In this document: positions 14,403 to 62,300 of the stretch, piece after piece | How the letters are laid out: the number at the start of each line of letters is the position of its first letter | Position numbering within the stretch: the stretch's first letter is position 1 | IMG/VR virus record: IMGVR_UViG_3300012971_000018 | Location: 47,907-111,906 of that record | DNA from: a virus | Length of the DNA stretch: 64,000 nucleotides | Reading direction: 5' to 3' (one strand) | The notes under the pieces: generated by a model | What the model was told of the DNA's origin: nothing | Databases searched by the model: none | Seen by the model: only the letters and a program-made list of their open reading frames with translations | Made by a program: the position numbers and the translations under genes

Positions 14403-14602
14403 GGTTAGGTGGTGTAGGGCAAGGTGAGGTAGGGTTTGGTTCGGTAGGATGCGGTCTGGTACGGTTAGGTCGGGTCCGGTGCGGTCAGGTAAGGTAAGGC
14501 GCGGTGGGGTTAGGTCCGGTGGGGTAGGGTCGTGTCGGGTTGGGTTCGGTGAGGTCTGGCGAGGTCAGGTTGGGTTGGTTGGGGTATGGTTTGGTAAGGT
14601 AA
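14403..14602 (+). repeat. GGY-NN pentamer tract, 40 units (putative guide ncRNA)
   Basis: ggtta ggtgg tgtag ggcaa ggtga ... ggtaa ggtaa in unbroken 5-nt phase, filling the intergenic gap. Confidence 0.95.
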
Positions 14603-14612
14603 GGGTAATAGC

Positions 14613-15149
14613 ATGGTCGAGCGCAGACGATCCCAACCGGCGGAAACGCCAATCGATCCCCAGCCGCGGATGTCGATCGAGCAGCTACGCGAGAGCATGG
14701 AAATCCGCCAGGAGGGCCAGGCGCTCGACGCCTGCCTGGGCGAGCAGCCCGATCTGTTCTTCCATGCCGCGGACGGTTACCGGCTGGCGGTCGCGGCCCG
14801 CGATGCGCTCGATCTCGATCTCGATTTTCTAAAGGCCGATCTGGCCGAAAGCTTCCGCGACGAAGCCTTGCAGAACGAAGAGAAGATTACCGAGGCGGCG
14901 ATAACCCGCAAGCTGGCGCTTAACGATGTGGTGCAGGACATGGAGCGCGACCTGCTCCGCCTGCGTGGCGAGGTCGACCACTGGGCGGCGATTAAGGACG
15001 GCTATACCCAGCGATCGTTCATGTTGCGCGAGCTGGTTCGGCTAATCACTGCCCGTATGGCTAACCTGCATCTGGAGCGTTCCGTCGCCGGCTCGCAGGA
15101 GGACCTCGTGGAGGCGCGACGGCGGGCGGCGAGAGCGGCAGGCCAATAA
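14613..15149 (+). CDS. UvsY-like recombination mediator (helical)
   Basis: KITEAAI...coiled coil...QRSFMLRELV; located beside SSB and RecA. Confidence 0.55.
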   Translation: MVERRRSQPAETPIDPQPRMSIEQLRESMEIRQEGQALDACLGEQPDLFFHAADGYRLAVAARDALDLDLDFLKADLAESFRDEALQNEEKITEAAITRKLALNDVVQDMERDLLRLRGEVDHWAAIKDGYTQRSFMLRELVRLITARMANLHLERSVAGSQEDLVEARRRAARAAGQ

Positions 15150-15287
15150 TGGAGCTGGTCCTCTACGGCGTTGCCCTGCTGCTGTTTATCGCCGTCGCCT
15201 GCTACGTGGGCGCCCGGGCGATCGGTATAGCTTGGTATCGCACCAAGCTGGAGTACATGCGATCTGTGTTCCGAGAAGGAGACCAAA

Positions 15288-16406
15288 ATGGCAAATAAGC
15301 CGAAGCTAAGATACTATGGTGCCAACCGTACGGTCGAGGACGTAATGCGGACGCAATACGTCCCGTCCGGGAATTACGACGCCATTATCCAGGAGGGCTT
15401 CCCGGTATTCAAGCCGAAGGACGGCGAGAACGTTATCCGGCTTATGCAGGCGAGCTGGCCGGAGGAGGAAATTCCGAAATGGGGCACGGACTGGGCGATC
15501 CTCATTTCGGTCCACAACAATGTCGGCGACCGCGGCACCTTCCTGTGTCTCGATGCCATGTATGGCGAGCCTTGCCCGGTCTGCGAGGCGGCCATGGAGG
15601 AGCCCGACAAGGACATTCGCTTCGAGCTGGAGGCCAACAAGCGCGCGCTGGCGTGGCTTATTAACCGGAAAGACCCGAGCGTCGGACCGCAGGCATGGTC
15701 GATGCCGTTAAAGAAAGTCTGGAAGGTTATTAATGCCCGCTCGCGCGACCGCAAGACCGGTGCGTTGCTGCACATTGACGATCCGGAGGCAGGGTACGAC
15801 GTGGTCTTTACCGGCGAGAATACCGGCAAGAAGACCGCCGACTACCAGGGGATCGAGATCGAGCGCGAGGCCACCATGCTAGGCCCCGACGACGCGACGC
15901 AGCAGAAGTGGATCGACTACATTGTGGAGAACCCGCTGCCGTCGATCCTAAACATCCCGGACCCCGAGTACATTCGTAAGCGCCTGTTCGGGAGGGTAAG
16001 CCGCGCCCGCCCGGCCGACGCTGTGGAGGAGGCGACCGGTGCGATGCCCGCGCGGCGGCGACCGGTAGCCCGGTCCGACGACGGTGTGCCGACCGAGCGG
16101 GACCCTACAGAGCCCGCCGACGCCGCGGCCGATACCCCGGCCACGGATGGCCGCGTACCGCGTCGTACGGCCCGCGCTGTGGCACCGGAGGAGCCTCCAT
16201 TCGAACCCGACCCCTCCGCTGCTGCCGATCCGGGCGAGAGCGACCACGACCCCGAGACCGGAGAGGTAATGGACGGCACCGCGCCGCCGGTCCGTCCGGG
16301 GCGCCGTCCACCCCGGGACCCCGCGCCCGCGCCCGCGGAGACGCCGGCCCCGTCCCGCGCCACGCGGCAAGCCCTCGATCGCGTGCGGCCAAGTGCCCGC
16401 AGGTAG
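15288..16406 (+). CDS. Single-stranded DNA-binding protein (gp32-like) with long acidic/Pro-rich tail
   Basis: FKPKDGENVIR, H...FLCL...GEPCPVCE Zn motif, DDPEAGYD. Confidence 0.7.
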   Translation: MANKPKLRYYGANRTVEDVMRTQYVPSGNYDAIIQEGFPVFKPKDGENVIRLMQASWPEEEIPKWGTDWAILISVHNNVGDRGTFLCLDAMYGEPCPVCEAAMEEPDKDIRFELEANKRALAWLINRKDPSVGPQAWSMPLKKVWKVINARSRDRKTGALLHIDDPEAGYDVVFTGENTGKKTADYQGIEIEREATMLGPDDATQQKWIDYIVENPLPSILNIPDPEYIRKRLFGRVSRARPADAVEEATGAMPARRRPVARSDDGVPTERDPTEPADAAADTPATDGRVPRRTARAVAPEEPPFEPDPSAAADPGESDHDPETGEVMDGTAPPVRPGRRPPRDPAPAPAETPAPSRATRQALDRVRPSARR

Positions 16407-17502
16407 GCGAGTGTTGGTAAGGCGGGTGCTGCCATCGCAGGTTGGAGCCCGCGCGGTAACCCCCGCGCGGGTAGCAACCGACTACTTCCCGGACGAGGAA
16501 CTGGCGCTCGTACCGTCGGGCTGCACGGTGCTCGACTGCGGGGCGACCGGAGGCGGCCAGCGTTCGCTCGAAGGGGCTTGGCCGCTGGGCAGGATAGTCA
16601 ATATTGTCGGCGACAAGAGCGTCGGCAAGACCTTAATTGCGATCGAGGCGTGTGCGAATTTCGCCAGGAAGTACCCGCGCGGCCGTATCCGCTATCGCGA
16701 GGCCGAGGCGGCCTTTGACGTTAACTATGCGGCATCCCTGGGACTGCCGGTAGACCGGGTTAACTTCGGTCCCAAGGGCATTAAGACCTACTGGAGCACG
16801 GTCGAGGACATCTTCGAGGACCTGCGCGCGGCGGTCATTGCGGACCAGAGGAGCAAGGTCCCATCGCTCTATATCGTTGACTCGCTCGACGCGCTGGGCT
16901 CGCGCGACCTTATCGGCCGCGACCTCGACAAAGGCACGTATTTTACCGCCAAAGCCAAGCTTATGTCCGAGATGCTGCAAGAGCTGGCGAGCGAGTTTAA
17001 CGCCGCCAACATGCTGCTTATATTCATATCCCAGATACGCGACAAGATCGGCGTAACGTTCGGTTCGAAGGTGGCCCGCGCGGGCGGCCACGCGCTCGAC
17101 TTCTATGCCTCCCACATCGTGTTCCTGCGGCATGTCGCGTGGCTGGTCGAGACCGTAAAGGGGGTCGAGCGCACGACCGGCGTGCGCATCGGGTTTAATT
17201 TCCAGAAGAACAAGATCGCAGTGCCGGCGCGCAAGGGCGAATTCGTGCTCCGGTTCGGCTACGGGATCGACGATCTGGCGGCGTGCGTTAACTGGATGCA
17301 GTCCGAGGCCAAGGACTGGCTGCCCGAGATCGGCCTAAAGGCGACAGCGACCATGGCCGAAGTGGCTAAGTTCCTTGTTCGACAGGAGATGCTGGAAGAT
17401 GCCGCGTACAAGACGCTTGCCAAGGACGTCCGCAGGATTACCACGGAGGCGTGGGTCGACGTCGAGAACGGCTTTAGGCCGAAGCGGCAGAAGTACGGCT
17501 AG
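16393..17502 (+). CDS. recA: RecA/UvsX-like recombinase
   Basis: GRIVNIVGDKSVGKT, EAEAAFD, IVDSLDAL, FISQIRDKIGVTFG, GGHALDFYAS, KNK; start uncertain. Confidence 0.92.
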   Translation: MPAGRRVLVRRVLPSQVGARAVTPARVATDYFPDEELALVPSGCTVLDCGATGGGQRSLEGAWPLGRIVNIVGDKSVGKTLIAIEACANFARKYPRGRIRYREAEAAFDVNYAASLGLPVDRVNFGPKGIKTYWSTVEDIFEDLRAAVIADQRSKVPSLYIVDSLDALGSRDLIGRDLDKGTYFTAKAKLMSEMLQELASEFNAANMLLIFISQIRDKIGVTFGSKVARAGGHALDFYASHIVFLRHVAWLVETVKGVERTTGVRIGFNFQKNKIAVPARKGEFVLRFGYGIDDLAACVNWMQSEAKDWLPEIGLKATATMAEVAKFLVRQEMLEDAAYKTLAKDVRRITTEAWVDVENGFRPKRQKYG

Positions 17503-17620
17503 CTAGGTCTGGTGTCGCCTTTCCGACCTACCCCCTTGCCTTTGGGGCCAAAATCGCAGTAAGGTCGCCCAAATCGGTCCATGCGAGGCAAAATAGGACC
17601 ATTTTCCGGGACATGCAGCC

Positions 17621-18130
17621 GTGGCATCGGGTTGGGTCGTAGCACGCGCGAAGACGAACCAGGAGCAGAAAGCGGCCGAGCACGTCACAAACCAACTTCC
17701 CCTCTACGGCGGTGGCGAGTTCTACTACCCGAAGGTGCTGGTTAAGGTCCGCCACATGTTCTGCACCAAGCCGCTGTTCGGCGGCTATTTCTTTGTCCGC
17801 ACGGTTTCGGGAGCGTGGCACTTCCTTGGCAATACCTTTGGCGTCCAGGGCGTCGTCCGGTTCGGCGAGAACGTCGCGACGATAGCCGACGAGCAGATAC
17901 GGAATATCCGCGCCCGCGAGGTCGACAGCATTGTCGTCCTGCCACCCCCGCCGGTCCCCGAGCTGCGCTGGAAGCGGGGCACCATGCTGCGGGTAAAGGG
18001 CGGCGTGTTTTCTGGGAATACCGGTATCTACCAGGGCATGGGCACGCGGCAACGCGAACAGTTGCTCATGGACTTTCTAGGTCGCAAGACCGTCATTTTG
18101 CTACAATCGGAGCTGCTGGAAGCTGCGTAG
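17621..18130 (+). CDS. NusG/RfaH-family antitermination factor
   Basis: W.V...K.NQE, PLFGGYFFV, TFGVQGVVRFG (NGN domain); KOW LRVKGGVFSGNTG..LMDFLGR. Confidence 0.88.
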   Translation: MASGWVVARAKTNQEQKAAEHVTNQLPLYGGGEFYYPKVLVKVRHMFCTKPLFGGYFFVRTVSGAWHFLGNTFGVQGVVRFGENVATIADEQIRNIRAREVDSIVVLPPPPVPELRWKRGTMLRVKGGVFSGNTGIYQGMGTRQREQLLMDFLGRKTVILLQSELLEAA

Positions 18131-18280
18131 AACGTGTCGTTGGTGTGCCACGTTGGAGGTCGTATCGTGCAACCCAGAAGAGCCGTACATCGGTCGACAC
18201 AAACGGGGCTCGCCACGAGCGACCGTAACGGCGGTAGCGTATCTGTGGTCGATATTATTCCCTGGTAGGAGGCCACGAAA

Positions 18281-19422: not shown

Positions 19423-19632
19423 ATGTCGATCGAACGTGTGCAAGGCCGGGTAAAGTGGTACGATCCCCGCAAGGGCTTCGGGTTCGCTACGCCGCAGGTG
19501 GATGGGATGGACGTCTTTATCGCTGCCGCCAGCCTGCCGCCGGGCGTTAACAAGCTTAACGAGGACCAGACCATAAGCTACATCGTCGAGACATCGCGTA
19601 AAGGTCCGAGGGCTGCTTGCGTACAGGTCTAG
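19423..19632 (+). CDS. Cold-shock domain protein
   Basis: GRVKWYDPRKGFGF, DVFI, KGPRA. Confidence 0.9.
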   Translation: MSIERVQGRVKWYDPRKGFGFATPQVDGMDVFIAAASLPPGVNKLNEDQTISYIVETSRKGPRAACVQV

Positions 19633-21434
19633 CCGAAGAACGTGCACATTGGCCGCCGGATTACAACGCGCATTTCGCGTGGCGTACCCGCCAGCGGGCT
19701 TGGCTGTGCGAAGACCCCCGCCGGATTGAAAGCGCGTTGGAGTACTACCGCACTAGGCCGGTGGCTTTTATCGAGCATTGGGGCATAACCTTCGATCCGC
19801 GCAATCTGGGTCGCGAGGATCGCGCGGCCTATATGCCGTTCATTATGTTCGAACGCCAGCGGCAGCTAATCGAGTTCCTAACCGAATGTGTCCGGGACCA
19901 GCAATCCGGTCTGGTCGAGAAGGCCCGCGACATGGGTGCGACGTGGACCTGCTGCGCCTTTAGCGTCCACCAGTGGCTGTTCGTTCCCGGGGCGGCGATC
20001 GGCTGGGGCTCGCGGTTGCTCGATCTGGTGGACCGGGTTGGCATTAAGGATAGCATCTTCGAGAAGATTAGGGACTTCATTCGCTGGATGCCCCCCGAGT
20101 TCTGGCCCAAAGGCTTCTGGCCCGAGGAGCACATGCCGTTCCTGCGGATTATTAATCCCGAGAACGGCGCCACGATTGCCGGCGAAGGCGGCGACAACAT
20201 GGGCCGCGGTGGCCGCAAGACGATGTACTTCAAGGATGAAAGTGCACACTACGCCAGGCCCGACCTGGTCGAGGCCGCACTGACGTCCAATACCGCGGTG
20301 CAAATCGACATCTCCTCGGTGCATGGTCTGGGCGGGGCGTTCCAGCGCCGTCGCGAGGCCGGCCAGGAGTGGGAGCCCGGCCGTACCATAGCGCCCGGCA
20401 TTACCCGGGTCTTCGTTATGGACTGGCGCCACAATCCGGCCAAGACGCAGGACTGGTACGACCGCGAAAAGCGCCGATACATTAATGAAGGCAACGCCCA
20501 CATCTGGGCGCAGGAGGTCGACCGCAACTACGCCGCCAGCGTTATCGGCACGATTATCCCGCGGGAGTGGGTGGTTGCTGCGGTCGATGCCCACAAGAAG
20601 CTGGGCTTTGGCGACGATGGCGCGTGGGGCGGGGCGCTCGACGTCGCCGATGGTGGGGCCGATACCAACGCAATCGCCATTCGCAAGGGCAACGTGCTTA
20701 AGCACGTCGAGGAATGGGTCGCCCCCGATGCGGCCGTTACCGCGCGCCGGGCTATTGGATTGTGCCGTCCCCATATGCCCGATCCACCGTTTGTTACGGC
20801 GTTCGAGCTGCAATACGACTGCATCGGCGTGGGCTCGACCGTTAAGGCGGAAGGCAATCGGCTGCATGAAGAAAGGTTGCTGCCGCGGGGCTTCGTGCTC
20901 GCACCGTGGAATGCCGGCGATAGTCCGCTAAATGCCGACAAGCCGATAATCCCCGGCGATCGGCAGTCCCCATTGAACGGCGATTTCTACGCCAATCTAA
21001 AGGCCCAGGGGTGGTGGCAGCTACGCGGGCGTTTCGAGCGGACATGGCGCGCGGTTACCCACAAGGAGCTAACCGAGCTGGCGACGCTTACCGATCGTAC
21101 GCTCGACCAGCAACGCAGGTTCCAGGCGCTCAAGGAGGCATTGTCCGGTGCGCTTGAAGACCCGCTGGGCGATTACACCTACGACGACGAGGACCTAATC
21201 GCGATCGATGCGGAGGCGATCCCGCTGGCCACCCGGCTAAAGCTCGAAAAGGAGTTAAGCCAGCCGACCATCGGCTATAGCTCGAAGCTTAAGCTGTTAG
21301 TCAATAAGCAACCCGACGGCACCAAATCCCCGAATCTGGCGGATAGCGTTATGATGGCCTTCTGGCCGGTACCCACGCGGCGTATGGGTTACATTAGCCC
21401 GCAGGTTCTGGCGCGGGCGGGAACCAGAGGATAA
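19617..21434 (+). CDS. Terminase large subunit
   Basis: VEKARDMGATW, GRGGR..YFKDESAH, ALDVADGGAD, YDCIGVG, KSPNLADS. Confidence 0.93.
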   Translation: MRTGLAEERAHWPPDYNAHFAWRTRQRAWLCEDPRRIESALEYYRTRPVAFIEHWGITFDPRNLGREDRAAYMPFIMFERQRQLIEFLTECVRDQQSGLVEKARDMGATWTCCAFSVHQWLFVPGAAIGWGSRLLDLVDRVGIKDSIFEKIRDFIRWMPPEFWPKGFWPEEHMPFLRIINPENGATIAGEGGDNMGRGGRKTMYFKDESAHYARPDLVEAALTSNTAVQIDISSVHGLGGAFQRRREAGQEWEPGRTIAPGITRVFVMDWRHNPAKTQDWYDREKRRYINEGNAHIWAQEVDRNYAASVIGTIIPREWVVAAVDAHKKLGFGDDGAWGGALDVADGGADTNAIAIRKGNVLKHVEEWVAPDAAVTARRAIGLCRPHMPDPPFVTAFELQYDCIGVGSTVKAEGNRLHEERLLPRGFVLAPWNAGDSPLNADKPIIPGDRQSPLNGDFYANLKAQGWWQLRGRFERTWRAVTHKELTELATLTDRTLDQQRRFQALKEALSGALEDPLGDYTYDDEDLIAIDAEAIPLATRLKLEKELSQPTIGYSSKLKLLVNKQPDGTKSPNLADSVMMAFWPVPTRRMGYISPQVLARAGTRG

Positions 21435-21435: not shown

Positions 21436-21654
21436 GGTTCGGTGTGGCGAGGTGGGGTGAGGCAGGTCTGGTGAGGTTAGGTGGGATAGGGCGAGGTAAG
21501 GTCTGGTGGGGTGAGGTATGGTCCGGTACGGTGAGGCTGGGTAGGGTACGGTGAGGTTAGGTGGGATAGGGCGAGGTAGGGTTGGGTGCGGTATGGTGAG
21601 GCGAGGTTAGGTCCGGTCAGGTTCGGTGTGGTCCGGTAGGGTAAGGTTTGGTAT
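21436..21654 (+). repeat. GGY-NN pentamer tract, about 44 units (putative guide ncRNA)
   Basis: Starts 1 nt after the TerL stop; one 4-nt slip (ggca); its last unit overlaps the next ATG. Confidence 0.95.
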
Positions 21655-46985: not shown

Positions 46986-48040
46986 GGGTCGATCCGATTG
47001 CATATGGGCTTGGCCTCGCGCTTGCGATGGACCGGAAGGTTTGCAACATCTTCGGGGAATGTGTCGAGCAGAGCGAGGAGGCGGGCCGCAAAGAGGTCCA
47101 GCAGGCCAGGAAGGGGGAAAAGCAGCGGGAGAAGGAAGCCACGAAATATTTGAAGGGCAGGGACGCTCTCGCCCCCGAGCAGCAAAAGCCATTGGTAACG
47201 TGGAAGGTCGGCGACCCCGAGGATACCGAGCGCGTCGCGCGCGAAGTCGGAGTGCCCCCCGAGAAGCTCCACGAGATGGCGCGCAACTTCCACAACTACA
47301 AGGCCCACGATGCCGAGGAGACCGTCGTGCCCGCAGGCGGTGCCAATGCCGAGACCCATGGCGCCGCCCATGCGACCGAGCGTGCCGAGATCGCCGGCAA
47401 GACCGGCATTACCGGCGGTCCGCCGACGCGCCATCCGACCGACGGCGGCGGTGCGGGTCTTACGGCGACGGGGCACATGAAAGTCCCGGACAACATCGAT
47501 TGGCCGAGCAAGGATGCGGAGCCGGACCCACACGAAGAAGAGAAAGCCGGGATCGCCGCCGAGTGGCGGCGAAACAAGCGGGCCGCGGCGGATCGCGAGA
47601 GCGAGCTGTTGCGCGAGCCGGGTGAGGACCAGCGTCGGGAGCTAACGCACAACGAGTTGGCCGAGCTGTACAATCTTTACCATCTCGCTCGCACGGCGTT
47701 GGCGGGGGAAAGCCCATCCCAGTACGATCGTAAGCTCTGGGCCACCAAGGAGTTTGCAAAACTCCACCCGGATATCCCTTCCAAATGGATATATCTCGGG
47801 TTCGAACAATCCGGGCCGGGCAGGGACAGCATTGCTGGGGACGCCAAAGCGTTTCCTTCCTGGAAGGAGGCGCATACGGCTGCGGTCCAGTTAGCACGGC
47901 AATTGGGACGCGAAGTTGGTATCGAGCGGACCAAGGAATATGGCAAAGAGGTTTATTTGGTGCACCATCTGCCAAATCCTGGTAATCGCTACGGGTTCGA
48001 ATTAAGGGTCGAGGTGGTAAAGCCAACCGACCCCCTTTGA
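46982..48040 (+). CDS. Hypothetical multidomain head-associated protein
   Basis: ATGA-coupled; N-terminal LALAMD motif. Confidence 0.6.
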
Positions 48041-50362: not shown

Positions 50363-51460
50363 ATGAATCTGCAAGAGTCAATTGCCCAGTGGCGTGCCGA
50401 CCGGCCGCACCTGGAGGCCCGTGGCCTTAGCTTCGTTCCCGGAGCCGAGGTTGTCCGTTACATGCCGGACGAGTGGAAGCTTAATGCGGCCCTGGCGATG
50501 GATGCCATTCCGTTGCTGACGACCGATCCGAACGCCGGCATCCCCGTTATGCTTACGACCTCGATCGATCCCGAGGTCGTCCGCATCTTGTTCACTCCGA
50601 ACAAGGCCGCCATTATCTTCGGCGAGCGCAGGTCCGGGACTTGGCTCGACCAGACCCGCATCTTCCCGGTCGTCGAGCACGCTGGCGAGGTCTCCACCTA
50701 CGGCGACTACTCCGGCAACGGCGAGGCCCAGGTTAACACCGACTTCCCCAATCGCCAGGCATACCTGTTCCAGACCATTAAGGAGTACGGCGAGCTGGAG
50801 CTGGAGCGCATGGGCCTCGCGAAGCTTAACTGGGTCTCGGAGAAGGACCAGGCGGCGGCGCTTGTTATGAACAAGTACCTAAACCTGACCTACTTCTTCG
50901 GGGTCTCGGGGTTGCAGAACTACGGGCTGCTAAACGACCCCAACCTTAACGCCTCCATTACCCCCGCGACCAAGGCGTATGGCGGGACGAAGTGGATCGT
51001 GTCGGGCGTCGTGCAGGCCACCGCCAACGAGATATTTACCGACATCCAGTCCCTGTACCTTAAGCTGGTGCAGCAGACCAACGGTCTCGTGGCGGCCGAC
51101 TCGGCCCTGGTGCTCGCGATGTCTCCGCAGTCGGAGGTCGCGCTAACCACGACCAACACCTTCAACGTCAACGTGCACGACCTGCTTAAGAAGAACTTCC
51201 CGAAGTTGAAGGTCGAGACTGCGATCCAGTACGGTGCGATTAGCGCCTCCAACCCGCAGGGCATCGCGGCGGGCGAGTTCGCACAGCTTATCGCTGCCGA
51301 CATCGAGGGGCAGTCCACCGGCTGGTGCGCATTTAACGAGAAGATGCGCGCGCACCCGATTATTCGGGACCTCTCGTCGTTCCGCCAGAAGGTTACCGGC
51401 GGGACGTGGGGCACGATTATCCGCCAGCCGTTCGCGATCTCCAGCATTCTCGGTCTGTAG
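50363..51460 (+). CDS. Major capsid protein (DUF2184 type)
   Basis: NAGIP..LTT.IDP, GE..TYGDY, YGELELE, GLQNYGLLNDPNL, F.EKMRAH, GGTWG.II..P. Confidence 0.92.
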   Translation: MNLQESIAQWRADRPHLEARGLSFVPGAEVVRYMPDEWKLNAALAMDAIPLLTTDPNAGIPVMLTTSIDPEVVRILFTPNKAAIIFGERRSGTWLDQTRIFPVVEHAGEVSTYGDYSGNGEAQVNTDFPNRQAYLFQTIKEYGELELERMGLAKLNWVSEKDQAAALVMNKYLNLTYFFGVSGLQNYGLLNDPNLNASITPATKAYGGTKWIVSGVVQATANEIFTDIQSLYLKLVQQTNGLVAADSALVLAMSPQSEVALTTTNTFNVNVHDLLKKNFPKLKVETAIQYGAISASNPQGIAAGEFAQLIAADIEGQSTGWCAFNEKMRAHPIIRDLSSFRQKVTGGTWGTIIRQPFAISSILGL

Positions 51461-51474
51461 ACGCCCACTGCGCA

Positions 51475-51500
51475 AAAGGGTAGGGTCCGCCCTACCCTTT
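51475..51500 (+). terminator. Intrinsic terminator after the capsid gene
   Basis: AAAGGGTAGGG-TCCG-CCCTACCCTTT. Confidence 0.75.
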
Positions 51501-51521
51501 CGTGTCTTTGGAGGAGTAACC

Positions 51522-51983
51522 ATGGTCGAGCGTCTTAGTTCCGTGCGCCAGAACGTCTCCACGGTCTGCGTTGGCTGTAACCTGCCGAATGGCCTGGAGC
51601 TGCAATTGTTTGCCGAGCAGTCCGGAAGCGAGATGACCCCCCAAGGGCCGCGGGCTGTTAAAGTCTTCCGCAAGCACGGCGATCCGATTACGCTTAAGGG
51701 CGTGGCCTATCCCTTTGGCAAGATGCCCGAGCACCAGATAATCTCCGGCTACGCCGTAACGATGGTCCCGAAGGAATTCTGGGACAAGTGGTGCGCGCAG
51801 TTCCACGACCACGACGCGCTTAAGAACAAGTCGTTAATCGCCGCGGCCGACTTAAGCGATCTCCAGGCCAAGGTGCGCGAAGCCCGGCAGGCGAAGGTCC
51901 GCTCCGGTATGGAGGCTATCGACCCGAAGAACCCGCCGCCGGTCGGCGGCAGGGTAACGCCGGCAACGACGGGCAATGCTTAG
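51522..51983 (+). CDS. Conserved head-module protein
   Basis: V.VGCNLPNGL.L, GYAVT.VPKEFW..W, SGMEAIDP; GGAGG RBS. Confidence 0.7.
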   Translation: MVERLSSVRQNVSTVCVGCNLPNGLELQLFAEQSGSEMTPQGPRAVKVFRKHGDPITLKGVAYPFGKMPEHQIISGYAVTMVPKEFWDKWCAQFHDHDALKNKSLIAAADLSDLQAKVREARQAKVRSGMEAIDPKNPPPVGGRVTPATTGNA

Positions 51984-51986: not shown

Positions 51987-52381
51987 GGTGTGGTTCGGTT
52001 TGGTCGGGTAAGGTCCGGTGTGGCGAGGTGTGGTCAGGTCGGGTGCGGTACGGCTAGGTGTGGTAAGGTAAGGTCTGGTTGGGTATGGTCAGGTCGGGTC
52101 CGGTGGGGTCGGTTCAGGTAAGGTGGGATGCGGTATGGTTCGGTTTGGTAAGGTAGGGTGCGGCATGGTTCGGTCCGGTCGGGTTAGGTACGGTCCGGTA
52201 GTGTGAGGTGGGGTGTGGCATGGTTCGGTAGTGTTGGGTATGGTTCGGTTTTGTTAGGTTGGGCATGGTTGGGTCTGGTTAGGCGTGGTTCGGTTTGGTC
52301 CGGTTTGGTCGGGTCGGGTAAGGTCTGGTTAGGTGTGGTACGCCGTGGTACGGTGCGGTCCGGTGGGGTAGGGTATGGTGT
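51987..52381 (+). repeat. GGY-NN pentamer tract, 79 units (putative guide ncRNA)
   Basis: Longest tract; 5-nt phase unbroken over 395 nt. Confidence 0.95.
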
Positions 52382-52464
52382 TTAATCTCGGTAGGGATAT
52401 CCTAATCGGGTTTGCAATCGGAGGGGCGGTCGGCATCTTCCAGCTTCTAATGTTCGGAGTTTAG
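52375..52464 (+). CDS. 29-aa hydrophobic peptide
   Basis: MVFNLGRDILIGFAIGGAVGIFQLLMFGV fills the gap between the tract and the DUF4054 gene. Confidence 0.45.
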   Translation: MVFNLGRDILIGFAIGGAVGIFQLLMFGV

Positions 52465-55186: not shown

Positions 55187-55725
55187 GGTCCGGTCCGGTG
55201 GGGTGTGGTGGGGTCTGGTCCGGTTTGGTAAGGTGGCGTGGGGTGGGGTAGGGTTCGGTTCGGTATGGTTTGGTGAGGTGCGGTAAGGTAGGGCTTTATT
55301 TGTAGATTTTCTGCGGTGGGGTATGGTTCGGTCTGGTGAGGCGAGGTGCGGTAAGGTCGGGTGATGTGCGGTGGGGTATGGTCGGGTGGGGTCTGGTCCG
55401 GTATGGTAGGGCTTTATTTGTAGATTTTCTGCGGTCGGGTTAGGTGAGGTACGGTATGGTGCGGTCCGGTAAGGTTGGGTGTGGTCGGGTATGGTCGGGT
55501 GCCGTTCGGTGAGGTGTGGTGGAGTCGGGTTAGGTTGGGTCCGGTAAGGTGCGGTCTGGTAGGGCTTTATTTGTAGATTTTCTGCGGTGCGGTCTGGTAC
55601 GGCGAGGTAAGGCGAGGTAGGGTGCGGTCAGGTGACGTCGGGTGCGGTTCGGTCAGGTGCGGTAAGGTTTGGTCAGGTGCGGTATGGTGCGGTGCGGTGT
55701 TGTGAGGTAAGGTGTGGTAAGGTCC
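55187..55725 (+). ncRNA. Array of four GGY-NN units (21, 19, 26 and 28 pentamers) separated by an identical linker; putative guide-RNA array
   Basis: GGTAGGGC-TTTATTTGTAGATTTTCTGC occurs exactly three times (linkers 55295-55314, 55413-55432, 55566-55585). Confidence 0.85.
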
Positions 55726-55741: not shown

Positions 55742-56071
55742 GTGGTAACTGTCTACGTACATATTGTTGGTACCACACCATTGCTGCACCGCCGGTTCGA
55801 CGATTTCTTCCCATCCAATTGGATTATCGGTGCGATCCGCGAGGCCGCCTCGAACCACAAGCTCCGCGGCTCGCGCAAATTGGCGAAGCTCTTGGTTCCG
55901 GTTGCGGTCCATGTTCCCACCGAGAACATCCAGCTCCTTACCGGTGATGGCAAATCGCACATTAAGGACTGTAATGTCGAGGTACTTATAGCGTATCGGC
56001 AGGGCCGACGGATTGTATTTTGGTCCGGTGTGTTAAGGGGTGGTCCGGCATGGTCGGGTTGGGTCGGGTAA
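55742..56071 (+). pseudogene. Internally deleted, truncated paralog of the RAMP-like gene
   Basis: Same AAGGAGACGTAACGTG start; FPS.WI.G.IREA.SNHKLRGSRK and L.GDGKS.IKD shared with 56151-56726; lacks about 34 aa and the whole C-terminal half. Confidence 0.8.
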
Positions 56072-56095
56072 GTTTGTTCAGGTTGGGTATGGCTC
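56022..56095 (+). repeat. Short degenerate GGY-NN tract
   Basis: About 14 units with several motif substitutions and one slip. Confidence 0.7.
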
Positions 56096-56150: not shown

Positions 56151-56726
56151 GTGCTAACTATCGACATCCAGCTTCTTGGTACCACTGCAATGCTGCACCA
56201 CAAGTTCGAGGCGGAGGCGGAGAACCCGAAGGCGACGAGGAACGTCGTCGTCGACCACGGCACCCCCCGCGAGCAGGCCGAGAAGGTCGTCTACCGCGAC
56301 GACAATGGTCTGTTCTACTTCCCGTCCAGTTGGATTACCGGTTCGATCCGGGAGGCCGGCTCGAACCACAAGCTCCGCGGCTCGCGCAAGTCCACCAAGT
56401 TCGTGGTCCCGGCGGCGATCCGCGTCGTCTCGCCGGACATCCCGCTCCTTAACGGCGACGGCAAGTCGCGCATTAAGGACTACGAGGTCGACAGCCGCCC
56501 GGTTACGATCCCGGCGACCAAGGGCCGGATTATGCGGCACCGCCCCCGGTTCGATTGCTGGTCGGCGAAGTTCCCCTTGGTTATTAACGACGACCTGCTG
56601 CCGGAGGAGTTCGTCCAGCAGTTGCTTACCGAGGCCGGCCAGTCGCAGGGCATCGGCGATTTCCGCCCCAACACCCGCGGCCCCTTCGGCTGCTTCCGGG
56701 TCGTTTCCTGGGCCAAGGCGAAGTAA
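56151..56726 (+). CDS. Standalone RAMP/Cas7-like RNA-binding protein (putative effector of the GGY-NN RNAs)
   Basis: N-terminal strand I.I.LLGTT.MLHH, YFPSSWITGSIREA helix, R.RPRF..W, C-terminal Gly-rich loop AG...GIGDFRP..GPFGCFRV; AAGGAG RBS; tracts on both sides. Confidence 0.75.
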   Translation: MLTIDIQLLGTTAMLHHKFEAEAENPKATRNVVVDHGTPREQAEKVVYRDDNGLFYFPSSWITGSIREAGSNHKLRGSRKSTKFVVPAAIRVVSPDIPLLNGDGKSRIKDYEVDSRPVTIPATKGRIMRHRPRFDCWSAKFPLVINDDLLPEEFVQQLLTEAGQSQGIGDFRPNTRGPFGCFRVVSWAKAK

Positions 56727-56759: not shown

Positions 56760-56800
56760 AGGGCGGGGACTGTGTCCCCGCCTTCCCTCCATTCTGTTTT
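56760..56800 (+). terminator. GC-rich hairpin between the RAMP-like gene and the next tract
   Basis: GGCGGGGAC-TGT-GTCCCCGCC followed by a pyrimidine/T run. Confidence 0.55.
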
Positions 56801-56801: not shown

Positions 56802-57036
56802 GGTCCGGTGTGGTCGGGTCCGGTGCGGTTGGGTTGGGTACGGTCTGGTTCGGTATGGTCAGGTCCGGTTGGGTACGGTATGGTTTGGTAAGGTTTGGTG
56901 CGGTAAGGTTCGGTTGGGTGCGGTCTGGTAGGGTCGGGTCCGGTATGGTCCGGTTCGGTGGGGTCCGGTTCGGTGGGGTAGGGTTCGGTGGGGTCCGGTT
57001 CGGTGGGGTAGGGTTTGGTTTGGTGAGGTTTGGCCG
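56802..57036 (+). repeat. GGY-NN pentamer tract, 47 units
   Basis: In-phase pentamers with an internal tandem duplication near the 3' end. Confidence 0.95.
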
Positions 57037-57131
57037 TGGCTTCCGGTATTTGGCGACAGATAATTGTCTTTGTGGTTATCCAATCGGTTCCGATCGCGCT
57101 CGCGTTGGTGCTAATCGGAATGTTGCGGTAG
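57036..57131 (+). CDS. 31-aa hydrophobic peptide between two tracts
   Basis: GTG..TAG, MASGIWRQIIVFVVIQSVPIALALVLIGMLR. Confidence 0.45.
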   Translation: MASGIWRQIIVFVVIQSVPIALALVLIGMLR

Positions 57132-57231
57132 GGTCGGGTAAGGTGCGGTCGGGTCAGGTTTGGTCTGGTGCGGCGAGGTGGGGTATGCCGAGGTCCGGTA
57201 TGGCGAGGTTAGGTCGGGTAAGGTAGGGTTT
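57127..57231 (+). repeat. GGY-NN pentamer tract, 21 units
   Basis: Ends ggtaa ggtag ggttt immediately before ATG 57232. Confidence 0.95.
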
Positions 57232-57792
57232 ATGGCTGATAAAACTCCGTACTTCCTCGCACTGTGCGAGGCGATGCGTCTGTTAAGCATGGACCCACGT
57301 ACGTTCTTCGTCGGCCAGGGCGTCGGATGCGCGGGCACGTTTATGACCGACACGCTGCGCGACGTCCCGAAAGAGAAGCTTCTCGAATTCCCGGTGGCCG
57401 AGGACTTGCAGCTCGGGTTTTGTACCGGGCTGTCGCTTAAGGGCTTCGTCCCGGTTAGCATCTTCCCGCGCTGGAACTTCCTCGTCTGCGCGGCGAACCA
57501 GTTGGTAAACCATCTCGACAAGCTGCCGTTGTTCTCGGACTACCATCCGAAGGTTATAATCCGGACCGCGGCGCCGTCGTCGGTACCGATCGACCCCGGT
57601 CCCCAGCACATGGGGAACTACTCGGTGGCGTTCCGGTCGATGCTGGAGACGGTCGACATCGTCGACCTGTACATGGCCGAGAGTATCGTCCCGGCCTATG
57701 CCGCGGCGCTCGCGTCCCGACGCTCGACGATCCTGGTGGAAAGCATGGCGGCCTATGGGTGGTCTACCCCGCCGTCGGGGGTTTCGCGATGA
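57232..57792 (+). CDS. TPP-dependent enzyme, E1-beta/transketolase pyrimidine-binding subunit
   Basis: FVGQGV, EFPVAEDLQLG..TGL, NQLVNHLDK, GPQH. Confidence 0.85.
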   Translation: MADKTPYFLALCEAMRLLSMDPRTFFVGQGVGCAGTFMTDTLRDVPKEKLLEFPVAEDLQLGFCTGLSLKGFVPVSIFPRWNFLVCAANQLVNHLDKLPLFSDYHPKVIIRTAAPSSVPIDPGPQHMGNYSVAFRSMLETVDIVDLYMAESIVPAYAAALASRRSTILVESMAAYGWSTPPSGVSR

Positions 57793-58433
57793 CCTCCGCG
57801 AGTAAGGACTATACCGCGGAACGGCTGCTGCGGTTCGAGCAGCAAATCGCCGACGAGTTCGAGACCGGAGCGATCCGGGCGCCTATCCATCTCGGCGGTG
57901 GGAACGAGGCGCAGCTTATCGACTACTTTAACACCAGCGTACAGGACTGGGACTGGGTACTCTGCTCGTGGCGGTCGCACTACCACTGCCTGCTTAAGGG
58001 CGTTCCGCCGGACGTGCTGCGCGCGGCTATTCGTGCCGGACGGTCGGTCTCCCTGTGCTTCCCGGACCAGCGGATACTGTCGTCTGGCATTGTCGGCGGG
58101 ACCGCTCCGATTGCGCTCGGGCTGGCATGGCCTGGGAACTACACAGCGCCTACGCCTACACCGATCCGGGTGCACTGCTTTATAGGGGACATGACCGAGA
58201 AGGCGGGCATCGTGCGCGAGGCGATGGAGTACGGTGCGCGCCACGGTCTTAGCATCGTCTGGATCGTCGAGGACAACGGGCTATCGGTCTGCACACCGAC
58301 GGATGTGTCGTGGGGACTTGGGAAAACGCCTGTTAACAGGCTGTCGTACAAGTACGAGCTTTCGCGGCCCCATGCCGGAACCGGCCGGTGGGTCGATTTT
58401 AGCAGAGGAAGCGCGAGCAAAACGGGGTTTTGA
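57789..58433 (+). CDS. TPP-dependent enzyme, E1-alpha subunit
   Basis: PIHLGGGNE, SWRSHYH.L.KG, SGIVGG, FIGD...EDNGLS TPP motif. Confidence 0.85.
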   Translation: MTSASKDYTAERLLRFEQQIADEFETGAIRAPIHLGGGNEAQLIDYFNTSVQDWDWVLCSWRSHYHCLLKGVPPDVLRAAIRAGRSVSLCFPDQRILSSGIVGGTAPIALGLAWPGNYTAPTPTPIRVHCFIGDMTEKAGIVREAMEYGARHGLSIVWIVEDNGLSVCTPTDVSWGLGKTPVNRLSYKYELSRPHAGTGRWVDFSRGSASKTGF

Positions 58434-58435
58434 AC

Positions 58436-58790
58436 GGTTCGGTGCGGTGTGGTACGGTAGGGTATGGTGCGGTTGGGTACGGTGCGGTAGGCTGCGGTAA
58501 GGTAAGGCTTTGTTTGTACCGTTTTAAGTTTTGGTCGGTTTTGGTCGGGTTCGGTAGGGTATGGTAAGGTCGGGTAAGGTCCGGTTAGGTCTGGTCAGGT
58601 GGGGTGGGGTTTGGTCCGGCGAGGTGAGGTGCGGTAAGGTAAGGCTTTAGTTTGTTTGCGTACGGTAAGGTGCGGTTTGGTTAGGTCTGGTAGGGTTGGG
58701 TAAGGTATGGTTTGGTTGTGTGTGGTTCGGTTCGGTAAGGTAGGGTGTGGTTCGGTCCGGTTAGGTAAGGCTTTAGTTGTTGCGTTCTCC
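58436..58790 (+). ncRNA. Array of three GGY-NN units (14, 22 and 21 pentamers) ending in related GGTAAGGCTTT linkers
   Basis: ggtaa-ggc-tttgtttgtac (ggc at 58506), ggtaa-ggc-tttagtttgtttgcg (58643), ggtaa-ggc-tttagttgttgcg (58769). Confidence 0.85.
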
Positions 58791-58933
58791 ATTCCCGGTT
58801 TCGCGTTTTGGAGATTTATCTGCCCTTAACGGCGGCTAAGGGTGCGCGTCCGAGCCCGATCCTGCCTGCTAAGGGTTTTACACAGACACGGACGGTCGCA
58901 GCCGGGGCCACAGCGCCCCGGCAGCTTCGTTAA

Positions 58934-59013
58934 GGTTGGGCGAGGTAAGGTGGGGTGGGGTAGTGTGTGGTCAGGTGTTGTTGGGTAGGGTACGGTTCGG
59001 TTTGGTAAGGTAG
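58934..59013 (+). repeat. GGY-NN pentamer tract, 16 units
   Basis: In-phase pentamers preceded by a GCCGGGGC...GCCCCGGC hairpin. Confidence 0.9.
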
Positions 59014-59048
59014 GTACGATCGTGCATCCACCATAAGGGAGATGCCAA

Positions 59049-59357
59049 ATGAATCCGGGGCTTACCGAAGAAGGTGCGAAGGCCGCAGTCGGCATTATCG
59101 ACGCCTTAAAGACGCAGCCGGCCACATTGGCTATGATCGTGGTATCGTTTGGCTTGCTCGGGTATACGTTCTACGAGGGCCACACATTCAACGCGCAGCG
59201 CGGAGAGATGTTCGGAAAGTTTCTTGAGCAGCAGAAAGAGATGCAGGTGCTCCTGTCGAAATGCGTGGTCCCCGGGCAGACGTTCCGACGGCCGACACTT
59301 CTACCCAAGCCGGCCATCGAGCGTATTCCAGAGCCTAAGCCAGAGACTAAGCCATGA
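59049..59357 (+). CDS. Single-TM membrane protein
   Basis: IIDALKTQP..LAMIVVSFGLLGYTFY hydrophobic segment. Confidence 0.65.
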   Translation: MNPGLTEEGAKAAVGIIDALKTQPATLAMIVVSFGLLGYTFYEGHTFNAQRGEMFGKFLEQQKEMQVLLSKCVVPGQTFRRPTLLPKPAIERIPEPKPETKP

Positions 59358-59578
59358 TTGTGTTGCACAAGGGCACGTTCGAGTATCTTAACCCGACCGA
59401 GATGCAGAAGACCAGGATGTCGGTCATGCGAGTCAACTTCCGGAACATGGCCGATGCCATTGCCGACAACGTTCCACCCGGCGCCGATCGCGATTATGCC
59501 CTGCGCCTGCTGCGCTCGGCGGCCAGTTGGGTTAACATTGCAATTACCCGGAAGGACGACGGAACTCCACGGGAATAG
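59354..59578 (+). CDS. Small helical-hairpin protein, Acb2/Tad1-like
   Basis: FEY.NPT..Q...M...R..F...A..I...VP.G.DR..AL..L..A..W.N.AI. Confidence 0.5.
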   Translation: MIVLHKGTFEYLNPTEMQKTRMSVMRVNFRNMADAIADNVPPGADRDYALRLLRSAASWVNIAITRKDDGTPRE

Positions 59579-59585
59579 TTAGGTG

Positions 59586-59745
59586 TGTGGGGTGGGGTTA
59601 GGTATGGTCAGGTCGGGTATGGTTGGGTTCGGTAAGGTAAGGTAGGGTTGGGTTTGGTTAGGTTAGGTCAGGTAGGGTTCGGTGCGGTTGGTTTTGGTGC
59701 GGTTTGGTCTGGTGGGGTCCGGTTCGGTTAGGTCAGGTAAGGTGT
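59586..59745 (+). repeat. GGY-NN pentamer tract, about 32 units
   Basis: In-phase pentamers filling the gap before the ColD-like gene. Confidence 0.95.
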
Positions 59746-60916
59746 GGGGGCTGCTGTGTCAAAGTCGTGGTGGTATCCGACGGCGTTTAGCTTATGGGGC
59801 GACGAGGAATACGAGGCAATCGGTCGGGTCGTACAGACGGATCGCTTTACGATGGGCGAAGAGGTCGCGGCTTTCGAGCGCGAGTTCGCCGACTACCACG
59901 GCATGAAACATGGGATTATGGTTAACTCTGGCTCTTCGGCCAATTTAATCATGGTCGCGGCACTGTTCGCTCTCGGCCGGTTACAGCGTGGCGACAAGGT
60001 GCTGGTCCCGGCGCTGGCTTGGTCGACGACCTACGCTCCCCTTATCCAGCATGGGCTCGATCTGGAGCTGGTCGACTGCGACGGGACGTGGTGCGCGTTC
60101 GACCCCGAGCCGCTCGACCACGAAGACATAAAGCTTATCGTCTCGGTCCCCATTCTCGGTGCGCCCCAGGTCTACGCCAATACGCAGCGGATGGTCGCGG
60201 ATACGTGGTGTATCCCGATGGTCGAGGACAACTGCGAGGCGCTTGGAGCTTCCGTCCATGGCCACCCGTGCGGGACGCGCGGGTTGATGAACTCCTTTAG
60301 CTTCTTCTACTCGCACCAGCTTAGCGCAATCGAAGGCGGGATGGTCCTAACCGACGACGACGACTGCGCCCGGATGTGTCGTATCCTGCGGGCGCACGGC
60401 TGGACCCGGGATGTCGAGGCCCCGAAGTCGTTCGACGAGGAATACAACTTTACGCACTTCGGATACAACGTCCGGCCGGTCGAGATGCACGCCGCGATAG
60501 CCCGCTGCCAGCTTAGGAAGCTAAAGGACTTCGTCGATGCCCGGCGCGCCAACCTTAAGTTCTTCCACTCCCGGCGAGACTACTATGGCCTCCCCATTAA
60601 GCTCCAGCAGGTTAAGGGTCTCTACACCTCCCCGTTCGCCCTTCCATTCATGGTGGAGACGTCCGAGCTACGGAACAAGGTGGTGGTGGCGCTCCGCGCC
60701 GCCGATATCGACTGTCGCCTGCCGACTGGCGGCTGTTTCCAGATGCATCCGTACGGTGCTCCTTGGCGCGACCAAGCGACGCCCAATGCGCGTCGGGTCC
60801 ACGAGACCGGACTATTCCTAGGCAATGCGCCGTTCGCAATCGAGGACAAGATCGACCGCGCCTGCCAGATTATCCAAGCAGCGTTAACCGGAACACGTAG
60901 GGAAAGTGTATCGTGA
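59744..60916 (+). CDS. DegT/DnrJ-family PLP enzyme, ColD-like NDP-4-keto-6-deoxyhexose 3-dehydratase
   Basis: FTMG..V..FE..FA, MVNSGSSANL, EDNCE, SFFYSHQ..AIEGGM (His at the usual Schiff-base Lys), GYNVRP; start 59744 or 59756. Confidence 0.85.
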   Translation: MGAAVSKSWWYPTAFSLWGDEEYEAIGRVVQTDRFTMGEEVAAFEREFADYHGMKHGIMVNSGSSANLIMVAALFALGRLQRGDKVLVPALAWSTTYAPLIQHGLDLELVDCDGTWCAFDPEPLDHEDIKLIVSVPILGAPQVYANTQRMVADTWCIPMVEDNCEALGASVHGHPCGTRGLMNSFSFFYSHQLSAIEGGMVLTDDDDCARMCRILRAHGWTRDVEAPKSFDEEYNFTHFGYNVRPVEMHAAIARCQLRKLKDFVDARRANLKFFHSRRDYYGLPIKLQQVKGLYTSPFALPFMVETSELRNKVVVALRAADIDCRLPTGGCFQMHPYGAPWRDQATPNARRVHETGLFLGNAPFAIEDKIDRACQIIQAALTGTRRESVS

Positions 60917-61851
60917 AAATCCTTGTAACAGGTGGCGCCGGATATCTGGGATCGGTTCTGGTCGAAGAGCTGTTGCGAACGGATCGGCTGTCGATCGACA
61001 AGGTTGTCGTGCTCGACAACTTCATGTACGGGCAGACCTCGCTCTCCCATCTGTGCTGGGACGACGTTCTGGAGATCGTCCGCGGCGACGCCCGACGGAT
61101 TACCAGGGACTTTGTCTCGGAGTTCGATGTCGTAATCCCGCTCGCGGCGATCGTCGGTGCACCGGCTTGCGATGCCAATATTACCGCGGCAATCTCGACC
61201 AATGCGGACGCTATCGAAGCGCTCGTCTGTAACATGAACCTCGACCAGCGGCTAATAATCCCGATCTCCAATTCCGGCTATGGGGTCGGGGAGAAGGGAG
61301 TGCTGCTAACGGAAAAGGCCCCGCTTAATCCGGTCTCGCTCTATGGCAAGAACAAGGTCTTCGCCGAGACAGCAGCGATGGAGCATGGCAACACGATTAG
61401 CCTCCGACTTGCCACCGTGTTTGGCATGTCGCCGCGGATGCGCATGGACCTGCTCGTTAACGATTTCGTCTGGCGTGCGGTCCACGATAAGGCGGTGGTG
61501 CTGTTCGAGGCAGACTTCCGGCGCAACTACATCCACATCCGCGACGTCGCCCGCACCGTAATCCACTCCCTATTCTATTGGCAGGAGATGAAGAACAATA
61601 TCTACAACGTCGGCCTGTCGTCCGCCAATCTATCGAAGCGGCAGCTTTGCCAGGAGATAAAGAAGCAGGTCGAGGGCTTTGTCTTTGTGGAGGCGGAGGT
61701 CGGCGAGGACCCGGACAAGCGGGACTACGTCGTCTCCAATGCGAAGCTGGAAGCGACCGGATGGTCCCCAAGATGGAGCCTTTCCGCCGGCATCGCGGAG
61801 CTTGTTAAGGGCTACCGAATGTTTCGGAAGGTCCAGTACGGCAACATCTAG
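60913..61851 (+). CDS. NAD-dependent epimerase/dehydratase
   Basis: ILVTGGAGYLG, LAAIVG, YGKNK, RLATVFG, RNYIHIRD. Confidence 0.92.
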   Translation: MKILVTGGAGYLGSVLVEELLRTDRLSIDKVVVLDNFMYGQTSLSHLCWDDVLEIVRGDARRITRDFVSEFDVVIPLAAIVGAPACDANITAAISTNADAIEALVCNMNLDQRLIIPISNSGYGVGEKGVLLTEKAPLNPVSLYGKNKVFAETAAMEHGNTISLRLATVFGMSPRMRMDLLVNDFVWRAVHDKAVVLFEADFRRNYIHIRDVARTVIHSLFYWQEMKNNIYNVGLSSANLSKRQLCQEIKKQVEGFVFVEAEVGEDPDKRDYVVSNAKLEATGWSPRWSLSAGIAELVKGYRMFRKVQYGNI

Positions 61852-61860
61852 GAGAAAATT

Positions 61861-62091
61861 ATGGTGCTTCCACTCCACCTCGACGCCGACACGCTTCCGA
61901 TCATTTTGGCCAGGATCGGTACGCCGCTTAAGGGCGATGCCCAGCTTAACATGCTGGCCGACATGGGGGCGCGTCCGATGGACATTCTGTCCAATGCCGT
62001 CGTTAGCGCGGCAGCGACGGGCGGTGGATTGTCGGCGAGCGACGCTACCGCTATTACCAACGAATTGACCAAGCGCAGGCACGGCAAGTAA
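61861..62091 (+). CDS. Hypothetical protein
   Basis: AGGAG RBS; ends NELTKRRHGK. Confidence 0.65.
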   Translation: MVLPLHLDADTLPIILARIGTPLKGDAQLNMLADMGARPMDILSNAVVSAAATGGGLSASDATAITNELTKRRHGK

Positions 62092-62105
62092 AAGGTATAA
62101 TTTAA

Positions 62106-62300
62106 GGCGAGGTCTGGTACGGTCGGGTCGGGTAAGGTCAGGTGGGGTAAGGTAGGGTAGGGTGCGGTAAGGTGGTGTCCGGTGGGGTAGGGTCGGGTAA
62201 GGTGGGGTTTGGTAAGGTTAGGTGTGGTCTGGTGGGGTCGGGTCCGGTGCGGTGATGTAGGGTTCGGTTGGGTAGGGTGAGGTTAGGTCGGGTGAGGTAT
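62106..62300 (+). repeat. GGY-NN pentamer tract, 39 units
   Basis: In-phase pentamers; the last unit overlaps ATG 62299. Confidence 0.95.

Follow-up and report, generated by a model that had tools for sequence, protein, structure and literature searches.

Pentamer repeat tracts between the genes of a virus with a Vipr protein: a probable set of VIPR guides reaching 41.5 kb from vipr

The stretch of viral DNA analyzed here (the window, 64,000 nucleotides) is the last 64 kb of the 111,906 bp virus record IMGVR_UViG_3300012971_000018 (positions 47,907 to 111,906) and carries long tracts of a pentameric repeat, GGY-NN, between its genes. Our analysis indicates that the window holds a VIPR (Viral Interference Programmable Repeat) system, in which the tracts embedded in operons probably serve as extra guides. 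The VIPR class itself is already in print (three bioRxiv preprints, 2026). It is defined by a Vipr RAMP protein together with vrRNAs in which 9-16 GGY/NN repeats are followed by a constant 3' tail; the NN pairs recognize double-stranded DNA, skipping one base for each pair (NNxNNx), and binding silences transcription of rival phages, prophages and satellites (bioRxiv 10.64898/2026.04.26.720920). One Vipr protomer is bound per GGY repeat, forming a helical filament, and the residues that hold G1, G2 and Y3 have been named (bioRxiv 10.64898/2026.04.26.720927). In published VIPR the vrRNAs are expressed, processed to approximately 100 nt and bound by Vipr.

The identification of the system is carried by the product of the vipr gene (Table 1). 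A profile of its family (A1, 29 aligned proteins) matched the PDB chain 36pp_D, 'SUSP1 Vipr protein', with an E-value of 1.2e-43, and the 191-aa protein of the window alone matched 36pp with an E-value of 1e-5. The same protein matched phrog_4652 (E 6e-17) and no Pfam family. Its AlphaFold2 model (pLDDT 90.8) had as best folds in Foldseek the type III Csm3/Cas7 backbone proteins (Csm3 chains, E 4e-8 to 1e-5), suggesting a fold of this kind. In SUSP1, G1, G2 and Y3 are held by H17, R138, D177, W178 and R179, and the D177A and R138A substitutions abolish silencing (bioRxiv 10.64898/2026.04.26.720927). Residues H17, R131, D170, F171 and R172 of the window protein align with these positions, F171 representing an aromatic in place of W178. 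By the profile match and this alignment, the 191-aa gene product is a Vipr protein with the GGY-contacting residues conserved. The initial reading of the sequence without database searches (the sequence-only reading) had assigned the tracts to a RAMP-like gene as parts of one RNA-guided system, an assignment that is now substantiated, the gene being vipr and GGY/NN being the published vrRNA scaffold. A genome-wide search with a profile hidden Markov model (HMM) found only vipr and its duplicate vipr', and no other RAMP in the 111.9-kb genome. The two proteins share 38% identity (BLASTP, E 5e-27) with a gap of approximately 34 residues, and the similarity ends past residue ~112. The vipr' product is without the thumb arginine and the G-loop, and its gene runs into a short degenerate pentamer tract; a Shine-Dalgarno sequence and start context, AAGGAGACGTAACGTG, is common to both genes.

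According to a phase-aware scan the window contains 12 regions of GGY-NN pentamers on the plus strand and none on the minus strand, and the first 47.9 kb of the genome contain no tract by the same scan. Within these regions lie 489 GGY triplets, and for 411 of them the distance to the next GGY is exactly 5 nt; the third position of these in-phase triplets is T in 388 cases and C in 23 (94% versus 6%), and both N positions are near-uniform in base composition. A register-aware parse gave a total of 486 GGY-NN units with a single register per whole tract (T2 has one 1-nt slip), the longest one-register tracts comprising 79 (51987-52381), 47 (56802-57036), 40 (14403-14602) and 39 units (62106-62300). 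These numbers agree with the sequence-only reading, which had counted about 480 pentamers at some ten intergenic sites, all of them confirmed in place. Windows of six in-phase GGY triplets occurred 255 times on the plus strand and never on the minus strand, compared to a mean of 0.0 over 200 shuffles. The sequence occurs in a single public DNA run, a soil metagenome, and in no RNA run; contigs built from this run, the likely source, with a different assembler cover T1 and T2 with 0 differences.

The scaffold and the variable letters of the tracts behave very differently. About 92-94% of units conform to GGY in distal and proximal tracts alike (90-95% in the distal tracts T1-T3 and 94-100% close to vipr). 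The NN letters are essentially unique and maximally diverse while scaffold and register persist, and NN strings common to different tracts are not above chance. Under neutral decay GGY would be lost no more slowly than NN; this pattern, which is the signature of published vrRNAs, therefore argues for selection on the scaffold in all tracts, distal and proximal alike. Clear repeats were limited to two tandem duplications inside tracts, one of 80 nt in T2 (16 units, within 21465-21654) and one of 30 nt in T6 (within 56952-57011), and in the second half of T3 (52132-52300) an AT-TC unit pair recurs every 4-11 units. It seems that tracts lengthen when units are duplicated locally and their NN pairs then diverge.

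Close to vipr, the repeats are organized in two arrays that flank the gene on both sides and on the same strand. In array A three identical 24-nt U-rich tails, GGGCTTTATTTGTAGATTTTCTGC, stand between the blocks (55291-55314, 55409-55432 and 55562-55585), and the blocks end GGT-xx-GGT-AG-GGC ahead of the tail; three of the four blocks are tailed, and the last enters the start region of vipr' without one. The blocks of array B each end GGTAAGGTAAGGC and are followed by the U-rich tails GGCTTTGTTTG, GGCTTTAGTTTG and GGCTTTAGTTG, respectively. In their sequence, both arrays look canonical with respect to the published block-plus-tail design. The same design was found in the closest relatives (loci L009, L111 and L044, 53-55% identity), with different tails and with blocks of 12-42 units. 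Eight further tracts of the window (T1, T2, T3, T6, T7, T9, T10 and T11; 16-79 units) are tail-less. Some of these hold GGTAAGGTARGG, the motif at the ends of the tailed blocks; one instance lies at 14488, where T1 has an internal GGTAAGGTAAGGC like the 3' ends of the tailed blocks. By analogy with the published 'staggered' arrays, such motifs may represent internal vrRNA ends.

Table 1. Repeat tracts, arrays and associated features of the window (position 1 is its first nucleotide)
Feature	Position	Strand	Content	Context
T1	14399-14612	+	40 units	Clamp-loader gene (13424-14398) to gene 14613-15149 of the replication module
T2	21436-21654	+	44 units	Large terminase gene (19617-21434) to 61-aa zinc-ribbon open reading frame (ORF; ATG 21653)
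T3	51987-52381	+	79 units, one register, no tail	After gene 51234-51983
Array A	55187-55725	+	Four vrRNA-like blocks of 22, 20, 27 and 28 units	
vipr'	55742-56071	+	Truncated, internally deleted vipr duplicate	
T5	56022-56095	+	Short degenerate tract	3' end of vipr'
vipr	56151-56726	+	191-aa Vipr RAMP protein	Only intact copy in genome
Hairpin	56761-56782	+	G+C-rich, then T-rich run; read directly from sequence	Just past vipr stop
T6	56802-57036	+	47 units, tail-less, every GGY intact, internal 6-unit tandem duplication	
T7	57127-57231	+	21 units ending GGTAAGGTAGGGTTT	Directly before ATG 57232 (thiamine-diphosphate (TPP) enzyme E1 beta-like gene)
Array B	58436-58773	+	Three blocks of 15, 23 and 22 units, all tailed	
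T9	58934-59013	+	16 units	35 nt upstream of ATG 59049
T10	59582-59745	+	31 units	TAG 59578 to GTG 59744 (DegT-type aminotransferase)
T11	62104-62300	+	39-40 units	TAA 62091 to ATG 62299 (B12-binding enzyme gene with intein)

Nearly every tract opens 0-12 nt past a stop codon and closes on, or a few nucleotides before, the next start codon. T1 begins at the base right after TAG 14398 and closes 10 nt before ATG 14613; T2 opens 1 nt past TAA 21434 and T3 3 nt past TAG 51983, the two running into ATG 21653 and ATG 52375, respectively. Array A opens 12 nt past TAG 55174 and closes 16 nt before GTG 55742, array B opens 2 nt past TGA 58433, and T11 opens 12 nt past TAA 62091 and runs into ATG 62299. 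Between 55.2 and 62.3 kb, tracts occupy almost all of the intergenic gaps. The codon distances at T1, T2, T3, T7, T10, T11 and arrays A and B thus bear out the earlier description of tracts wedged between stop and start codons. The claim that they extend up to about 40 kb from the RAMP-like gene likewise holds, T1 lying 41.5 kb and T2 34.5 kb from vipr. That all tracts are on the sense strand is also correct, but follows from the fact that every long gene of the window is on the plus strand. The assignment of the tracts to replication, packaging and head operons stands for the first two, given the clamp-loader gene at T1 and the large terminase gene at T2, but not for the head operon, since the gene that precedes T3 is of unknown function. 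The ATG at 52375, on which T3 ends, opens an ORF of only 25 codons (52375-52452) for a hydrophobic peptide, and the next long ORF starts from 52467.

The association between tracts and Vipr is not limited to this virus. An IMG/VR scan for nine in-phase GGT units, blind to any protein, yielded 119 loci on contigs of 25-69% G+C. A vipr homologue was found beside the tract at approximately 40 of the 119 loci by tblastn and at 49 of them by HMM; by the latter search, 38 of the 56 loci with diverse NN letters had a homologue, compared to none of 80 control loci. When nine other VIPR-bearing virus records were scanned end to end, eight had all of their tracts within about 2 kb. The ninth, a complete 188-kb phage of approximately 34% G+C (IMGVR_UViG_3300014204_000113), carries seven tract sites across 100 kb, and most of these tracts open within a few nucleotides of a stop codon on the same strand. 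This phage has two Vipr paralogues in locus L208 (G001:C1:75000-90000), at 8124-8654 and 12108-12662, and its other tracts, scattered over intergenic gaps, are also found in loci L207 and L209-L211. The tract that follows the second paralogue (L208, 12681-12748) consists mainly of GGC instead of GGT units, which hints at paralogue-specific scaffolds. On a different viral contig, of 58% G+C (L040), positions 3243-4394 comprise 18 directly adjoining blocks of 9-15 units, all of which end in GGCAG with TT after it; by analogy, this array looks like the published 'staggered' tail-less type.

A comparison of syntenic junctions in related phages, which the sequence-only reading had proposed, could be made in part. 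At the junction between the clamp-loader gene and the next gene, where the window phage has the 214-nt T1, the relatives L125 and L126 show a 4-nt ATGA overlap and no tract, the junction sequences of these two being identical to each other. No tract follows the terminase gene in the best 80 terminase relatives from IMG/VR, and the best of these relatives, which are only 45-55% identical, have neither tracts nor Vipr. A megablast comparison of 14 kb with INPHARED phages gave no match. Given the ATGA overlap that relatives have at the site of T1 and the absence of tracts downstream of the terminase gene in the best 80 terminase relatives, the tracts appear to have been inserted into conserved junctions. 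These results, together with the dispersed tracts of the 188-kb phage, lend indirect support to the earlier suggestion that tracts can spread to new sites.

Taken together, these observations suggest how the dispersed tracts might function. The operon-embedded tracts would be transcribed within polycistronic mRNAs (perhaps at different stages of infection, as the sequence-only reading had suggested), coated by Vipr and trimmed by cellular RNases, and the distal tracts would then act as extra guides, perhaps 25-40 in all, aimed at competing phages, prophages or satellites of the soil host. A guide function is the most likely role for the distal tracts on the basis of their sequence, and control of downstream translation by the tracts is possible. 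Extending the suggestion of the sequence-only reading that coating of a tract could regulate translation, one could alternatively propose that the operon tracts are mainly cis-acting Vipr-binding sites, whose coating or cleavage sets the translation or stability of the flanking cistrons, with the guide role secondary or absent. This would be in line with the fact that the tracts close on, or within approximately 10 nt of, the start codon, and that their final units (GGTAAGGTARGG, GGTGAGGT) are the sole Shine-Dalgarno-like sequence ahead of it; with the position of T1, where relatives have a translationally coupled ATGA overlap; and with the lack, in the operon tracts, of the tail that marks the vrRNAs near vipr. 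An analogue of such regulation is found in TRAP (trp RNA-binding attenuation protein) and similar multimeric binders of repeat RNA; TRAP likewise reads trinucleotide repeats with 2-nt spacers, located in an mRNA leader, and can occlude a ribosome-binding site. However, TRAP has an unrelated fold, binds 11 repeats on a closed ring rather than forming an open filament, and is purely regulatory, and the analogy extends to the cis-regulatory alternative only. For such a role the GGY scaffold alone would suffice, which leaves tracts of 40-79 units with non-repeating NN pairs unexplained, and the same class of sequence is a proven guide in SUSP1. We regard a mainly cis-acting role as unlikely, noting that it can coexist with a guide function.

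The distal tracts might also be decoys for the Vipr of a rival phage, or passengers of slippage and duplication that are merely tolerated. Satellites have been reported to redirect the VIPR of their helper with solo vrRNAs (bioRxiv 10.64898/2026.10.15.759431), the tandem duplications in T2 and T6 and the recurrent AT-TC units in T3 point to local growth, and our scans for targets, described below, found none. Passengers, however, would be expected to lose GGY and gain indels by neutral decay, whereas GGY conservation and register are equal in distal and proximal tracts, and in a phage with a Vipr of its own, decoys would become loaded with that protein; this pair of explanations appears quite improbable to us. 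Even less credible is a role at the level of DNA that is unrelated to the RAMP protein, such as R-loops, two-tetrad G-quadruplexes, recombination hot spots or Chi-like protection. It would fit the placement of the G-rich strand as the non-template strand in all tracts and the occurrence of GG every 5 nt, but it is opposed by the tight co-occurrence with vipr over contigs of 31-60% G+C and by the strict pyrimidine at position 3, which fits the Y pocket of Vipr, and the 5-nt period is explained by the solved protein-RNA structure.

Several results weigh against the interpretation of the window as a VIPR system with the operon tracts as extra guides. A vap accessory gene next to vipr is typical, if not universal, in published VIPR, but in 15 related VIPR loci no homologue was found for any ORF located between 50 and 64 kb, except for vipr and vipr' themselves; the ORFs flanking vipr have no Pfam match, and the PHROG matches among them are enzyme genes only. 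The tailed blocks contain 15-28 units and the tail-less tracts 16-79, versus the published 9-16 with a conserved tail. Because units and tails differ from those of the characterized type II systems, it is an extrapolation that the tail-less tracts are processed and loaded. Furthermore, TA pairs amount to 5.4%, a weaker depletion than the approximately 3% predicted for pure in-frame coding targeting. Finally, no target was found for any tract in the scans that were made.

The scans for targets covered the virus itself and several collections. Guide windows of 12 and 10 units, compared with the phage's own genome under the 1-nt-skip rule, gave results equal to the shuffled null, in keeping with guides whose targets lie elsewhere; one window of T3 matched vipr at 16/20, but this match does not extend and was rejected. 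In approximately 2 Mb of fetched viral loci only borderline matches were obtained, the best being 25/30 on L187, a score that chance can account for given how many tests were made. Seven scans of collections for the NNx pattern were made with windows of 9-12 units: three of viral contigs gave 0, 0 and 1 match, the single match not extending, two of metagenome contigs gave 0 and 7 matches with extension at chance, and two of genome contigs gave 0 and 0. The seven metagenome matches fall in a group II intron maturase-like motif and in a single further gene, and were discarded as chance-level. Decoding all tracts as degenerate peptides in both senses gave no recognisable motif. These blanks say little, because a published guide footprint can be as short as 18 bp, as described for one guide (bioRxiv 10.64898/2026.10.15.759431).

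A single coincidence was observed at the start of T11. The 76-aa gene immediately upstream ends in ten codons for N E L T K R R H G K, and the first and second positions of these codons agree at 16 of 20 letters with the first ten NN pairs of T11, in exact end-to-end register (window 62059-62153), compared to a maximum of 14/20 in 300 shuffling trials. The three codons that differ represent one synonymous Leu and two conservative K/R swaps. None of the other tracts of the window spells the end of its upstream gene, and 77 junctions across all loci showed no general enrichment for this feature; two 14/20 outliers at junctions elsewhere were set aside as low-complexity or A/T-rich. A scan of metagenome contigs for a perfect version of the T11 match returned only unrelated genes. 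The start of T11 might be a guide directed at the 76-aa gene as carried by a sibling phage while sparing the phage's own copy, or the agreement could be due to chance. In the most far-reaching reading of all the tracts, which we consider improbable, the tracts of large VIPR phages would have colonised the phage's own operon junctions, where they would serve as tail-less guides cut from mRNA and where coating of their Shine-Dalgarno-like units by Vipr would tie downstream translation to the amount of Vipr; by extension from T11, guides might be written from the neighboring gene or be aimed at sibling versions of it.

Among known systems, the type II VIPR of SUSP1 and of a Pseudomonas fulva prophage is the most similar in that it is phage-encoded and has a single small RAMP protein with the same GGY contacts (PDB 36pp), hypervariable NN pairs and arrays of tailed blocks that flank vipr. 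In contrast, the window protein is only approximately 25% identical to SUSP1 Vipr and the window has no recognisable vap gene. Its blocks are of 15-28 rather than 9-16 units, and their U-rich tail is short and gives no sign of a pseudoknot. In addition, the window holds approximately 486 units and eight tail-less tracts, three of them 4-42 kb away in replication, packaging and other operons. Continuous tail-less tracts, in which successive vrRNAs adjoin directly, and vrRNAs away from vipr have precedents in the 'staggered' and hammerhead-interspersed arrays (bioRxiv 10.64898/2026.04.26.720920, legends of figures S18-S20) and in solo vrRNAs. Published staggered arrays sit at the VIPR locus, whereas the tracts of the window are wedged between essential genes. 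Solo vrRNAs are published from satellites and vipr-less phages (bioRxiv 10.64898/2026.10.15.759431), whereas the window phage has vipr. Unlike the hammerhead-interspersed arrays, the region from 51.5 to 62.5 kb contains no hammerhead or other Rfam family (E up to 1). The backbone of Class 1 CRISPR-Cas (Csm3/Cmr4/Cas7) shares the RRM core, the thumb and the G-loop and also polymerises along a guide RNA, but the window is without CRISPR-type repeats, its period is 5 nt instead of 6 nt, and the guide is split into dinucleotides. A Class 1 CRISPR-Cas system was also considered directly and rejected, since there is no repeat-spacer array, the sole RAMP is Vipr, and PADLOC reported only a marginal Csm5 (E 0.005); ten ORFs beside vipr had no Pfam or PHROG match to a Cas protein.

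The published survey of VIPR used 20-kb windows centred on vipr (bioRxiv 10.64898/2026.04.26.720920). Word searches gave nothing relevant on dispersed tracts in that preprint or on operon-embedded tracts in bioRxiv 10.64898/2026.10.15.759431, and none of the three preprints was found to describe a very large repertoire, continuous tail-less tracts of up to 79 units or tracts 35-42 kb from vipr within replication and packaging operons. The window phage and the 188-kb phage point to a VIPR guide store far larger than reported, much of it outside the locus, tail-less and placed between essential genes. If Vipr loads the distal tracts, guide biogenesis would need neither a tail nor a promoter of its own, vrRNA censuses confined to the locus would undercount the repertoire, and VIPR may exert feedback on the expression of the phage's own genes. 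The T1 junction, where relatives have an ATGA overlap and the window phage has a tract of 214 nt, represents a natural case for studying the origin of new tracts.

Some further features surround the tracts near vipr. The hairpin that follows the vipr stop codon is likely to be a terminator or a processing boundary; it is not listed by a simple terminator scan, and a scan for promoter and terminator consensus sequences gave counts at the level of shuffled sequence. The genes between the tracts from 55.2 to 62.3 kb include those for TPP-enzyme E1-like halves, for a DegT aminotransferase and an epimerase, and for a B12-binding enzyme, the last with an intein. Two adjacent genes (57232-58433) resemble the beta- and alpha-like halves of a thiamine-diphosphate E1 enzyme (phrog_34187); the pair is bounded by pentamer tracts on both sides, and the DegT aminotransferase and epimerase genes come next. 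The E1-like, DegT and epimerase genes probably form a sugar or base-modification cassette. At the end of the window (62299-63999), the gene for the enzyme with a B12-binding domain is split by an intein that carries an endonuclease domain of the HNH type (Pfam Intein_splicing; PHROG HNH matches).

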